The notes under the pieces were generated by a model that searched no databases, was not told the origin of the DNA, and saw only the letters and a list, made by a program, of their open reading frames with translations. A stretch of 23,704 nt of DNA. It comes from Xylographa opegraphella. Its lineage: Eukaryota. Within the stretch, counting starts at the first letter, position 1. Each line of letters opens with the position of its first letter. The position numbers and the translations under genes are program-made. The stretch spans positions 62,001 through 85,704 of the forward strand of contig JALDZX010000073.1 in the NCBI GenBank assembly GCA_022813865.1, in the 5' to 3' direction. Of this stretch, positions 3,126 to 23,704 are shown in pieces.

Positions 3126-3231
3126 AAAAAAAAGAATAAAATTTGTAATATTGTTAAATATATACGTAAACTATAAAAATACGCTAAAACGCCAAAATTA
3201 TAAATTCGAAACTCGATTAAATCATTATTTT

Positions 3232-3288
3232 TATTAAAAGGCACGTGTATTTGGATCAGGGCGGGGGCAACAGTAATCGTATATTCGG
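3232..3288 (+). mobile_element. LTR end truncated by assembly gap (same family as 3802-3992)
   Basis: 57 bp identical to 3802-3858, followed by an N-run. Confidence 0.75.
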
Positions 3289-3338
3289 NNNNNNNNNNNN
3301 NNNNNNNNNNNNNNNNNNNNNNNNNNNNNNNNNNNNNN

Positions 3339-3400
3339 AAGGTGCTAGTCCTGATCCAGCCCGACCCCTATTACCTGTGACTGATGTCATAGCCGTCACA
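3339..3400. mobile_element. Terminus of a high-copy LTR (gap-flanking family, ...GCCGTCACA)
   Basis: The same ~62 bp recurs at 21297-21358 and in reverse complement at 23643-23704, always next to a gap or the window edge. It has a TG/CA end and abuts the integrase relic. Confidence 0.75.
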
Positions 3401-4714
3401 CATAGAAACAAATTTCGATCGACTTTATCATAAAACTATCAAAGTCAGAAAATTTACTACAGAATTAAAATATGATTCGATAATGATATTTGTGGATAAA
3501 TTTACGAAATAATTTATTATCGTATTTTTTAAAGAAACGTTTACAGCCGAGCAACTGACTTTTCTCTTGTTAAACAGATTTATAAAAAATCATGATTTCT
3601 CAGTAGAAATAATATTTAATAGAAATAAATTGTTTATATTCAACTTTTAAGAGACTTTAATGTTTGAACTAAAAGTAAAACTAAAGATGTTAACGATTTA
3701 TTACCCACAAACGAATAAACAGATAAAAAGAATAAATCAGAACTTGGAAATGTATCTACGACACTTTATCAATTTAAAACAAAATAATTAAATATTATTA
3801 TTATTAAAAGGCACGTGTATTTGGATCAGGGCGGGGGCAACAGTAATCGTATATTCGGTGAAGTTCGGTATAGGCCACGAGAACGTGACATATACCTCCT
3901 ACGCTAGTACTGAACTACGCTATACATAAATAGAACTAGCCTTCAGGTATTCCTTTATGCCTACCAGCAAGTGATGCTTCTACCAATTAACAATTATTAC
4001 CTTTAAAACAATTGGTATTAAACGACAAACAATCTGCAATAATAAAATTATTACTTTTTTTCGCAAATATAGAATATCATTCACAATTATTTAAAAACAG
4101 AAAATCAGAACTTAATATTAATAAAGCAATGATATTAGCCAAAGATTTGAAGGTTACGCATAAAATGTTATTAAAAAGATTAAATAGAACAATCACAAAA
4201 TTACTGCTAAAAATACAAAAATACCAAGAATAAACCTTAGTTAAAGGAGAGGGATAAAGTATATCTATTTACAAAAAATTTAACAATCAGCAAGAATCGA
4301 AGCAAGAAGCTTAATCATGTCAAAGTCGAACCATTCTTAATCAAGCAAGTCAGAAAATCAGTTAATTACCTCCTTAACCTGCCAAAAAATATAAGAGTAC
4401 ACCCAGTGTTTGATATATTATTATTGGAACCAGCAGACGCAAGTACTCCATTACAGACAACCTTCTAATATAACAAAAAGGAAGAACAGGAATTCGAAGT
4501 AAAGAAAATCCTGGACAAGCAAGGTCAGAGTTACCTGGTCAAATAGAAAGAATATCCAGAATCGAATAATACTTGAGAACTACTTACTAGCCTTGGGAGC
4601 TGCCGGGAGCTTCTTCAACAGTATCGCCAAAAAGAGCAAGTATCTTGGAAGGGGAAGCTTCCAAGATCCCAGGAAAGAAAGAGGGAGAAAGGACCTCGGA
4701 GGGATCGCTGGTAG
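3401..4714 (+). pseudogene. pol C-terminus: integrase core, GPF/Y region and chromodomain, with RIP stops
   Basis: Translates to ISIDFIIKL..YDSIMIFVDKFTK..EIIFNRNKLFIFNF*..YYPQTNKQIKRINQNLEMYLRH (degenerate SDRDKLF and HPQTDGQTER), VHPVFDILLLEPA, and EFEVKKILDKQGQSYLVK*KEYPESNNT*E (chromodomain, TGG mutated to TAG/TGA). Frame ends at TAG 4712-4714. Confidence 0.9.
3802..3992. mobile_element. 191-bp solo LTR nested in the integrase
   Basis: Ends T[A]TTAA...TTAACA with 5-bp TSD ATTAT (3797-3801 and 3993-3997). Excision restores the integrase frame QNN*ILLLPLKQLVLNDKQSA. Confidence 0.85.
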
Positions 4715-5150
4715 AAGCCATAATTTTACGATTTTTATCCTCTTTTAGAACCTCGATGTTAAACATTTCCCGCTAAAACAAGGATCGACTTTCGATCTTA
4801 AGGTCCAAAAGCCGGTTCTTTTTAGCTGCAAGTTTCGCAGCCTTACGAGCCACTAGCGCGGCTGCCTTAACCCTCGTTGCCTCAAGACTGGCCTCCAGCT
4901 GGGCAATCTTCTTACGAAAACGACGTTTCTTTTCTTTCAAAGCCTTTCTATCGACATCGGTAACAATTAACGAACAACGTACTTTCACCTCAACATATTG
5001 CGCGTAGAAATCAGAATGCGCAGACATCTGGCACAAGACACCTTCTTTAACACAGCGATCGCAGGGATACATTACAAATTTTCCTTTTTAACGAATATCA
5101 ATAGATTGGACTTTTCGGCGATGGGAACCAGACGACTTATGTTTAGGCAT
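4587..5150 (-). pseudogene. Retrotransposon antisense ORF: Zn(II)2Cys6-like motif plus coiled coil, RIP-inactivated (187 aa reconstructed)
   Basis: One frame from ACC-ATG (5150) to TAG (4587-4589), broken only by TAA (5088-5090) and TAG (4773-4775), both CAR->TAR. Motif C-x2-C-x6-C-x8-Y(TAC)-x2-Y(TAT)-x6-C. Confidence 0.75.
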
Positions 5151-5206
5151 GGTGAAAAGAAGCTGCTGGAATTCTTTCGGAGCAAGAATCTGGCGGGGGG
5201 AGCTAG

Positions 5207-5544
5207 TAATAAGGTTCTGACCAATAATGTGTGGAACAGGGGTCGGAGGAACCATGACCCGATGCCTCCGTTGCCTCCATGGCCTCGGCCACGGAGGCAT
5301 GGAAGGCATAGGAGGCATCTTAGAATAGGACTTTTATATAGAATGGAGTATTTCTTTTATAGTAGAAGGCGTGTTCAACTCATGTTATGATCTTAGGATA
5401 ACATACTTCAATACGAACCCTCTGTACGAAGACTATTACTCTTGGAGAACTATTCACCTGTTACTGTGCCGTCCTATTCATTCATTGACGAATCAAACCC
5501 AGATCCCTAATCGAACTATACTAGTGAGAAGCAGGATCGTAACA
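5207..5544 (+). mobile_element. 3' LTR (338 bp) of the chromoviral element
   Basis: Starts directly after the PPT with T[A]ATAAG (TGATAAG in the second copy) and ends GATCGTAACA. Colinear with the reverse complement of 21434-21780 plus 22018-22037. Confidence 0.85.
5331..5340 (-). promoter_or_regulatory. Candidate TATA box TATATAAAAG in the LTR, oriented toward the antisense ORF
   Basis: About 180 bp upstream of ATG 5150; the identical 10-mer is at the homologous position in the solo LTR (21641-21650). Confidence 0.5.
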
Positions 5545-5935
5545 GATATCTGCTACGTAGCTTTTATCGCTTACGTAGTAACGCGTGCGTAACGTAATTC
5601 TACTGGAGTATATAAAGCCTTTCGATACAGTAGAGGCCTATAGTATAAGGACTGCAATACGCCGGCGGGGCGCATAAATCAAGCAGTAAAGAAACGTAAG
5701 CAGTAAACAAACTAATTTGTTTACTGTATACTGCGATGCGTCCGCTAGGTCTGACCTATCAAAGAGGTCAGCAGGGTGTAACGATACACGTCAGGGGTGT
5801 ATGAAAGAAAGGGGGGTAGCGGAGTCGTTACAAGGATTCTTGGGGCCCTGCGCCGCAATTCGCTGATTATTGAAGTCTCCTACAAGAGCTTTCCCTATGC
5901 TGGACATCATCATCGACGATAAGTGGCAGACTGTC

Positions 5936-21292: not shown

Positions 21293-21358
21293 ACTCAAGG
21301 TGCTAGTCCTGATCCAGCCCGACCCCTATTACTTGTGACTGATGTCATAATCGTCACA
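21293..21358. mobile_element. Terminus of the gap-flanking high-copy LTR
   Basis: Near-identical to 3339-3400; the three differences are transitions. Confidence 0.75.
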
Positions 21359-21433
21359 CTTTAACTTTAAATACTTAAATTAATATTAATAAAATATATA
21401 AAAAGATTAACTCGCAAAGAATTTATACCCAAT

Positions 21434-22037
21434 TATTACGATTTTGAATATCACTGGTACAGCTTGATCAAGAATCTGGGATGAATTCGTCAATGAATGA
21501 ATAAGAAAACACAGTAACAGATTTATCGTTTTTACAGAAATAATAATTTTCGTACAAAATTGTATTGAACGTTTTTATTTTATAAAACAGATTATAACAT
21601 AAATTGAACACGTTTTTATAACAAAAAAGATTCTTCGCTTTATATAAAAGTTTTGTTTCGAGATGCCTTCCATGCCTCCTCAGGGAGGTAATTGAAGTAA
21701 AGGGGCATGCCTCCCATGCCTTCTCAGGGAGGCAGAGGAGGCACCCGAACTAAAATTCTTTCGACCCCTGTTTTACACAGTGTAACGGCGTGTTACATGG
21801 CACTTTAACAAGTGATAGACGGAACGGGACTAAAGCGCGTCCGGGACTCAGGCTAGTTCGAAAGCGGTTANNNNNNNNNNNNNNNNNNNNNNNNNNNNNN
21901 NNNNNNNNNNNNNNNNNNTAAACTTGCTTCCTTGTATTATTCTAGGTTGAAATCGCTCACCTATAGCTGTGGTTCTAGGCCTGCTTTTCTGGTGAGATAG
22001 CGAGCCGTAACACACAGTATTGATCAGAATCTTATCA
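21434..22037 (-). mobile_element. Solo LTR of the same family as 5207-5544, interrupted by a nested LTR element
   Basis: Shared blocks ATTCGTCAATGAATGAATA, CACAGTAACAG, TTGAACACG, TATATAAAAG, CGACCCCTGTT. Ends T[A]TTACG...CTTATCA; TSD CCAAT/CCAGT (21429-21433 and 22038-22042). Confidence 0.85.
21781..22012. mobile_element. Younger LTR element (solo LTR or collapsed full element) nested in the solo LTR
   Basis: TGTAACGGC...GCCGTAACA ends, perfect TSD CACAG (21776-21780 and 22013-22017), internal N gap and normal GC content. Confidence 0.85.
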
Positions 22038-23642: not shown

Positions 23643-23704
23643 TGTGACGGCTATAACATCAGTCACAGGTAATAGGGGTCGGGCTGGATCAGGACTAGCA
23701 CCTT
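23643..23704. mobile_element. Terminus of the gap-flanking high-copy LTR (inverted copy)
   Basis: Reverse complement of 3339-3400 with one mismatch. Confidence 0.75.

Follow-up and report, generated by a model that had tools for sequence, protein, structure and literature searches.

The segment at 5241–5340 of the window (the whole stretch of 23,704 nucleotides analyzed here, which is fungal nuclear DNA) is the U3 part, up to the TATA element, of the 3′ long terminal repeat (LTR) of a dead Ty3/gypsy chromovirus. It carries a nested palindrome of five GGA(A)GGCA units next to a TATA element whose sequence, in most genomic copies, is symmetric. Judged from the sequence, the two may together form a bidirectional U3 promoter module, a palindromic GGAGGCA site cluster with a symmetric TATA in an HBZ-like layout. 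The chances of this interpretation appear about evenly balanced.

Such a module would work in both directions from a single site. The GGAGGCA palindrome would provide binding sites for a sequence-specific and probably dimeric factor, encoded either by the host or by the element, and the array with the symmetric TATA would constitute a two-faced core promoter. The forward face would drive the genomic RNA when the module stands in a 5′ LTR, whereas the face turned the other way would, from the 3′ LTR, drive an antisense accessory gene that starts at the ATG at 5150, across the polypurine tract. For sense transcription the array would lie upstream of the TATA, at the usual position of U3 activator sites, and for antisense transcription between the TATA and the gene. 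The layout of the sequence leads us to infer promoter activity in either direction and binding of a factor by the array.

A truncated chromovirus and its 3′ LTR

To the left of the LTR array, the + strand holds the AT-rich, stop-ridden tail of a Ty3/gypsy pol gene in which two domains are recognizable. The degraded pol includes an integrase C-terminal SH3 domain of the Tf2-1 type at 4241–4465 (Pfam PF24626, E 4.5e-10, 39.9 bits against a cut-off of 30) and ends with a chromodomain at 4508–4633 (Pfam PF00385 Chromo, E 1.8e-06, 28.2 bits against a cut-off of 25.1), both on the + strand; the Chromo match was obtained on a read-through of 4469–4711 that crosses two W-to-stop codons. The pol frame ends at the TAG at 4712–4714 (+). 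Since no recognizable remnant of the element exists upstream of about 4240, it is truncated on the 5′ side, where it is broken off around 3400 and at an N run. The window contains no direct (same-orientation) LTR copy, and no matching 5′ LTR with a target-site duplication around one element; the missing 5′ LTR shows truncation and is no argument against LTR identity. The element is a 5′-truncated, dead Ty3/gypsy chromovirus on the + strand.

Direct reading places a purine-rich spacer at 5151–5202 (+), with a polypurine-tract-like core, GGCGGGGGGAG, at 5192–5202. The LTR that follows (copy A, + strand) covers 5204–5544. Its right end at 5544 is firm and its left end falls between 5204 and 5228, an uncertainty of about 24 bases, as delimited by alignment with a second copy and by the divergence of contigs; TG stands at 5228 and CA at 5543–5544. 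The second copy (copy B, − strand) is inverted and mutated by transitions. The two were recognized as an inverted pair at 5448–5542 / 21436–21530, which alignment extends to about 5228–5544 / 21434–21779, and weaker likeness reaches 5204 / 21797, so that copy B occupies 21434–21797. Identity between copies A and B is 0.72 inside the LTR and 0.31 after 5544. Copy B lies 15.9 kb from copy A, past host genes that Pfam identifies as a class I/II aminotransferase, a W/Y-type tRNA synthetase, ribosomal protein S10, a PNP/UDP phosphorylase, an NF-Y histone-fold protein, exocyst Sec15 and an RRM protein. Neither pol nor a polypurine tract stands beside it, and it is plausibly a solo LTR.

The LTR sequences compared were the two full copies, A and B, and other genomic copies were seen through the contigs and contig depth of run X1. 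Nineteen of these contigs diverge immediately past 5544. Summed contig depth, which is not equivalent to copy number, is 6,412–140,998 in the LTR bins against about 160 in the unique flank, and it rises about 5-fold from bin 5080–5163 to bin 5164–5247. Because pol lies upstream on the same strand, a purine run intervenes and the sequence is repeated with a sharp end, 5204/5228–5544 is the 3′ LTR of a + strand element. The preliminary description of this DNA had called the segment an LTR, and the order of pol and purine tract, the TG..CA ends and the repeat depth bear this out. Its solo LTR at 21662–21742 is a genuine second copy, but one that extends over about 21434–21797. Runs X2 and X3, from other organisms of the same study, yielded short integrase-like pieces only, or no match.

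Two observations concern the behavior of the LTR in the genome. The last 70–100 bases (5475–5583) reach a summed depth of up to 140,998, against 6,412–60,289 in the remaining LTR, and this piece may be common to other repeat families. One run X1 contig runs from 5549 back to 5207 (343 bases back), possibly representing two LTRs in tandem somewhere in the genome.

An opposite orientation was also considered, in which the segment would be the 5′ LTR of a minus-strand element, with TGGTCAGAACC (5222–5212) as its primer-binding site and the antisense open reading frame (ORF) as gag. This idea was rejected because the + strand pol frame with its chromodomain extends to 4714, because in other copies the pol tail runs on to 5181 and into the LTR, and because the family of the antisense ORF is not gag-like.

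The GGAGGCA array

The array comprises five GGA(A)GGCA units in a nested palindrome of 59 bases (5261–5319), identified by direct reading, TRF, pattern search and folding. TRF assigns it a period of 9. Four units are exact GGAGGCA, at 5263–5269 (−), 5272–5278 (−), 5293–5299 (+) and 5311–5317 (+), and the fifth is GGAAGGCA at 5301–5308 (+), making two inverted and three direct units. Its core is an inverted repeat at 5272–5299 whose arms, 5272–5284 and 5287–5299, form 12 of 13 pairs around a TC loop; the sole mismatch is A.C at 5279/5292. A related CGGAGGA lies nearby at 5244–5250. In copy A, CCG occurs at 5259 and 5268 and CGG at 5286 and 5292.

This concentration of units exceeds chance expectation. 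GGARGCA occurs 15 times in the window, where 5.06 ± 2.39 occurrences are expected and none of 100 shuffles reaches 15, and 8 of the 15 fall inside the two arrays. Four occurrences of one 7-mer were reached in only 3 of 5000 shuffles of 5255–5325 and in 1 of 5000 of 21655–21750. Predicted RNA folding is likewise far from that of shuffled sequence on both strands, with z values of −7.36 (+) and −5.45 (−) for copy A and −3.98 and −3.29 for copy B.

The array of copy B (21664–21743) contains four exact GGAGGCA units and two TGCCTT(CC) variants in a different arrangement, with an insert of 26–27 bases that looks like a local duplication. No CGG or CCG is present in it, and its units are flanked by G or C/T. 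Compared across the two copies, the conserved core of the unit reads as GGAGGCA and not CGG. The preliminary description had proposed five units, two inverted and three direct, a hairpin, a related CGGAGGA at 5244 and retention of the motif in another arrangement in the second LTR, and all four points hold up on direct reading and pattern search. It had also noted adjoining CGG/CCG triplets; these are real in copy A, but they are not kept in copy B.

Searches for a known identity of the array gave little. Rfam returned no family at threshold, only generic hairpin likenesses such as MIR1219 (30.9 bits, gathering 79). The host-factor motifs CreA, PacC, Crz1 and NF-I-like, compared by eye, were discarded, as none of them fits the array.

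A symmetric TATA element

The TATA element (5331–5341), identified by direct reading and in contigs, carries the sequence TATATAAAAG, which is exact in both copies, at 5340–5331 (−) in copy A and at 21641–21650 (+) in copy B. Its distance from the array is 12–15 bases in both. The family differs from the window copies at one informative letter. In 5166 of 5807 of the run X1 depth (7 contigs), position 5334 is C, not T, and with C there the twelve bases 5332–5343 are identical on both strands. The TATA is therefore symmetric in most genomic copies, and both window copies have undergone a C-to-T-type change in it. Since most of the depth has C at 5334, the minus-strand bias of the TATA is not a feature of the family. 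That bias, pointed out in the preliminary description, is correct for the two window copies and fails for the family, while the exact retention of TATATAAAAG in the second LTR was correctly observed.

Majority letters also alter the core hairpin. G at 5279 accounts for 4731 of 5372 of the run X1 depth (3 contigs) and closes the single mismatch of the arms, and T at 5290, with 4577 of 5552, turns a G-C pair into G.U.

Mutation and conservation of the array

Plain identity scarcely distinguishes the array from its surroundings: copies A and B agree in 44 of 58 ungapped columns (0.76), with 27 gap columns in addition, against 143 of 195 (0.73) in the rest of the LTR. Transitions give a different picture. 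Relative to copy A, C>T/G>A changes in copy B affect 2 of 37 G/C sites in the array and 43 of 100 outside it (Fisher p 1e-5), and in CpY context 2 of 21 against 33 of 55. The G+C content of copy B is 57% in the array and 27% in the remainder. The earlier claim that the array is conserved thus stands for the sparing from transitions and falls for plain identity. Copy B is dead and selection at that locus is impossible, so the sparing may reflect mutational bias; either part of the divergence is older than the insertion, or the mutator acts poorly on the palindrome.

The arrangement of the array is fluid between copies. One run X1 contig lacks 5239–5302, most of the array, and because this genomic copy exists the array is dispensable for genomic persistence.

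The context of the transitions was recorded as well. Neurospora-type RIP prefers CpA. Changes between copies A and B favor C before C or T (14 of 22 and 19 of 33) over CpA (7 of 28) and CpG (3 of 17), unlike that preference.

The antisense gene

An antisense accessory gene, a pseudogene in the window, occupies 4587–5150 on the − strand, as defined by phmmer relatives, alignment and translation. The minus frame 5333–4587 has 249 codons with internal stops at TAA 5090–5088 and TAG 4775–4773. Two of the six cluster Cys residues are replaced by Tyr, and a stop stands where the best relative has Gln. The damage is of the transition type; the gene is dead here, a fossil. Neither a Pfam domain in the antisense ORF nor relatives in a word-indexed protein search with the read-through ORF were found. 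A phmmer search of 1.84 billion representatives, however, recovered 26 relatives at E ≤ 0.001, 5 of them at ≤ 1e-10 and 1 at ≤ 1e-30. The best, P0002, has 177 residues and 46% identity (E 4.7e-31), and its residues 1–177 align to query residues 62–246, through both stops to the end. Query residue 62 corresponds to ATG 5150 and to the first residue of P0002. In the alignment, 15 of 25 relatives start at the Met-Pro of ATG 5150 and 3 start later; the 7 others have predicted N-terminal extensions, 5 of which keep Met-Pro at that position. The gene starting at ATG 5150, as first proposed from the sequence, is well founded in this family. Scans of metagenome contigs with P0002 and P0032, and of viral contigs with P0002, gave no match.

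Members of the family are about 170–190 residues long and share the motifs MPK..ST.RR, CX2CX6CX8CX2CX6C, a long helix, RE..NI.ELE.DE and a PGSS tail. The predicted extensions of the seven relatives are rich in Pro, Ser, Phe and Leu; they could be the antisense of a purine run, a hint that these relatives are placed likewise. Tyr is found at cluster Cys columns in 5 of 25 relatives, which suggests the kind of damage expected of repeat-mutated transposon genes.

The gene fills the whole gap between pol and the polypurine tract, and its ATG 5150 is 54–78 bases from the LTR edge with the purine tract between them. Because nothing but the purine tract occupies this gap, the antisense promoter would have to be the LTR read backwards. 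On this anatomy the LTR is probably the promoter of the antisense gene, as the only structural option. Transcripts beginning far into the LTR would carry the array at their head, where it is predicted to form a hairpin of −41.5 kcal/mol on the antisense RNA, accompanied by ATGs at 5318, 5309, 5300, 5280 and 5255. Since an earlier start would add this hairpin and five upstream ATGs, an antisense start downstream of 5255 would be more likely.

Two further features of the region were noted. The conserved C-terminal tail of the antisense product (..APGSSQG, 4587–4640) lies opposite the last chromodomain helix, an overlap of about 15–40 codons that may hint at relatives occupying the same place. 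Two run X1 contigs join 4447 or 4595 to 5181, omitting 585–733 bases with the antisense gene; the genome may also contain forms of the element that lack this gene or have a strongly diverged version of it.

A Zn2Cys6-like product

The six-Cys cluster of the family is well preserved. Four of its Cys columns (C30, C33, C49 and C59) are invariant and the other two (C40 and C52) show conservation of at least 90%, and the spacing CX2CX6CX8CX2CX6C fits the Zn2Cys6 pattern CX2CX6CX5-12CX2CX6-8C, of which the window copy keeps four of six Cys. Sub-threshold matches to Pfam Zn_clus (PF00172) occur in 14 of 26 members at E ≤ 1, the best at 0.0054; no family member reaches the Pfam gathering score for Zn_clus, and the window copy has no match to it. 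Three Patellaria atrata members bear the UniRef label Zn(2)-C6 fungal-type. In the AlphaFold model of P0002 (pLDDT 87.0), two short cluster helices are followed by a 77-residue helix (65–141). The best 14 of the Foldseek matches listed are all Zn2Cys6 DNA-binding domains, at E of at least 0.44, and the Zn2Cys6 matches include Pho7, Gal4, Leu3, AlcR, Ppr1, Put3 and Hap1. VIA gives Z 2.2–2.7, with Leu3 aligned at an rmsd of 1.7 Å over 35 residues.

Other comparisons were less informative. A PDB profile search returned coiled-coil noise, with LAC9 only at E 3.4, and look-alikes in the Atlas are unnamed Ascomycota clusters of 62–210 members that serve as a lead only. Homodimer prediction for residues 1–145 of P0002 scored 0.02, against a mark of 0.32, and speaks neither for nor against a dimer. 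Canonical DNA-binding Zn2Cys6 clusters have a basic loop between Cys2 and Cys3, the place of a conserved Gly-containing loop in this family. The antisense protein is best described, from its predicted features, as Zn2Cys6-like and not as a proven member of the class; the zinc-cluster character proposed at the outset survives in that form, through the six-Cys pattern of the family.

Alternative explanations

Several other accounts of the array compete with the bidirectional promoter module. One, an unlikely one, denies the array any function. A GC-rich U3 minisatellite prone to slippage and template switching could have undergone neutral expansion, inversion and deletion, with the antisense gene expressed from elsewhere or its adjacency incidental. 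The arrangement that changes between copies A and B, with its insert and duplication in B, the genomic copy lacking most of the array and a plain identity not above that of the rest of the LTR are all compatible with such drift. It accounts less readily for the same 7-mer being exact four times in each copy at an equal distance from the TATA, or for the sparing of the array from transitions, and it leaves no other room for the promoter of a conserved antisense gene. A role of the array as a nucleic-acid structure is improbable. The genomic RNA would have the hairpin in its 3′ U3, immediately past the polypurine tract, or the hairpin would belong to an antisense leader; a small-RNA precursor and a DNA cruciform are further forms of this idea. 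Folds on both strands far below those of shuffles, folding kept in copy B despite rearrangement, the majority G at 5279 closing the only mismatch and the generic Rfam hairpin likenesses argue for it. The majority T at 5290, however, makes a G.U pair, no Rfam family is reached at threshold, and an equally good predicted fold is to be expected of a palindromic protein site. The antisense-leader form, which the preliminary description had raised, is unfavored, since it would put the strong hairpin and five ATGs ahead of the conserved start. A coding role, with the minus-strand units as in-frame ATG-CCT-CC (Met-Pro-Pro repeats) that extend the antisense protein at its N terminus, looks highly improbable and is largely refuted by sequence comparison. 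The minus frame meets no stop from 5333 until 5090, it contains the ATGs at 5318, 5309, 5300 and 5255 as well as that at 5150, and the array has a period of 9; but a + strand frame is likewise open across the array, as expected of a GC-rich palindrome, the frame of copy B breaks after 10 codons, and residue 1 of P0002 aligns to ATG 5150, where most relatives also begin.

The promoter module leaves the identity of its factor to either host or element, and an autoregulatory loop would settle this in favor of the element. In this loop, which the preliminary description had raised, the array would be the operator of the element's own Zn2Cys6-like protein, bound as a dimer, through which the protein would control its own transcription, that of the element, or both. 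On the sequence evidence this is doubtful. The invariant or nearly invariant Cys columns, the weak Zn_clus matches with the Patellaria atrata labels and the modeled cluster with its long helix and Foldseek matches point toward it. So do the gene that adjoins the array and the occurrence of CGGAGGCA in three units, both inverted and direct, once position 5279 is given its majority G. Against it stand the failure to reach the Pfam threshold for Zn_clus, with no match in the window copy, the weak fold scores and the replaced basic loop; moreover, CGG/CCG, the Zn2Cys6 operator half-sites, are absent from the array of copy B. A wider proposal, which the same sequence features make more doubtful still, is that of an ascomycete chromovirus lineage that has its own antisense Zn2Cys6-type factor, binding its own palindromic GGAGGCA operator. 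This would include expression from the 3′ LTR via the symmetric TATA and co-evolution of the cis and trans halves.

Relation to known systems

The antisense accessory genes of deltaretroviruses offer the nearest layout. HBZ is a bZIP factor. Passages of PMC7264820 describe the antisense promoter of HTLV as lying inside the 3′ LTR (PMC7264820). As with HTLV-1 HBZ, the last sense gene and the 3′ LTR here flank a transcription-factor-like antisense gene, and the only promoter available to that gene, deduced here from anatomy, would be the LTR read backwards. Unlike HBZ, this is a fungal retrotransposon with a Zn2Cys6-like product and a TATA beside the array, known at present from sequence.

Plant retrotransposons also carry extra antisense ORFs between pol and the 3′ LTR. 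Examples named in passages of PMC7264820 are Grande gene23, RIRE2, Retand and PvRetro13, with functions given there as unknown; some of the products are nuclear, and the Grande gene has its own upstream promoter (PMC7264820). These ORFs occur in long internal regions, and the same passages report no protein similarity to known families (PMC7264820). Compared by description, the extra gene has the same position and orientation in both cases, whereas the gene here fills the gap between pol and the polypurine tract, overlaps the chromodomain and has a zinc-cluster pattern.

The array itself can be set beside two familiar kinds of element. The U3 regions of LTRs often contain short repeated enhancer units just upstream of the TATA, in a number and arrangement that vary between copies. 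The units of the array resemble these in lying upstream of an LTR TATA in a copy-variable arrangement, but they differ in forming a nested palindrome beside a symmetric TATA, which would suit both directions. Zn2Cys6 dimers usually bind CGG half-site repeats. Like Gal4-type factors, the antisense protein has a six-Cys cluster followed by a long helix, and with the majority letter at 5279 the units of copy A include CGG three times; unlike those systems, the domain is below the Pfam threshold, the unit core is GGAGGCA and the array of copy B has no CGG.

In a limited literature search no description was found of a fungal antisense gene in an LTR element, or of one with a recognizable DNA-binding domain. 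One figure legend on fungal and plant chromoviruses mentions an 'additional ORF with unknown function' (PMC2864245). As a cis element the array is a familiar kind of U3 repeat, and what appears new is its pairing, within a chromovirus of fungi, with an antisense gene of zinc-cluster-like type. If the LTR module and the zinc-cluster gene cooperate, they would make a transposon that encodes its own transcriptional regulator readily accessible to study, and the module would be a ready-made bidirectional promoter that solo LTRs scatter beside host genes. Should the protein also bind the array, the retrotransposon would possess a self-contained on/off circuit, and HTLV-1 HBZ would have a counterpart in fungi. 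If module and gene do not cooperate, the array would be an ordinary U3 repeat.

Another repeat in the window

A short repeat is present in four copies of 91–98% identity, at 3224–3401, 3794–3858, 21297–21359 and 23643–23704. Its ends are complementary (GGATCAGGGCGGGGG... and ...CCTGATCCAGCCCGACCCC), and three of the four copies lie beside N runs. The repeat resembles the terminal inverted repeats of a MITE or another small DNA transposon that has inserted into AT-rich repeat regions.
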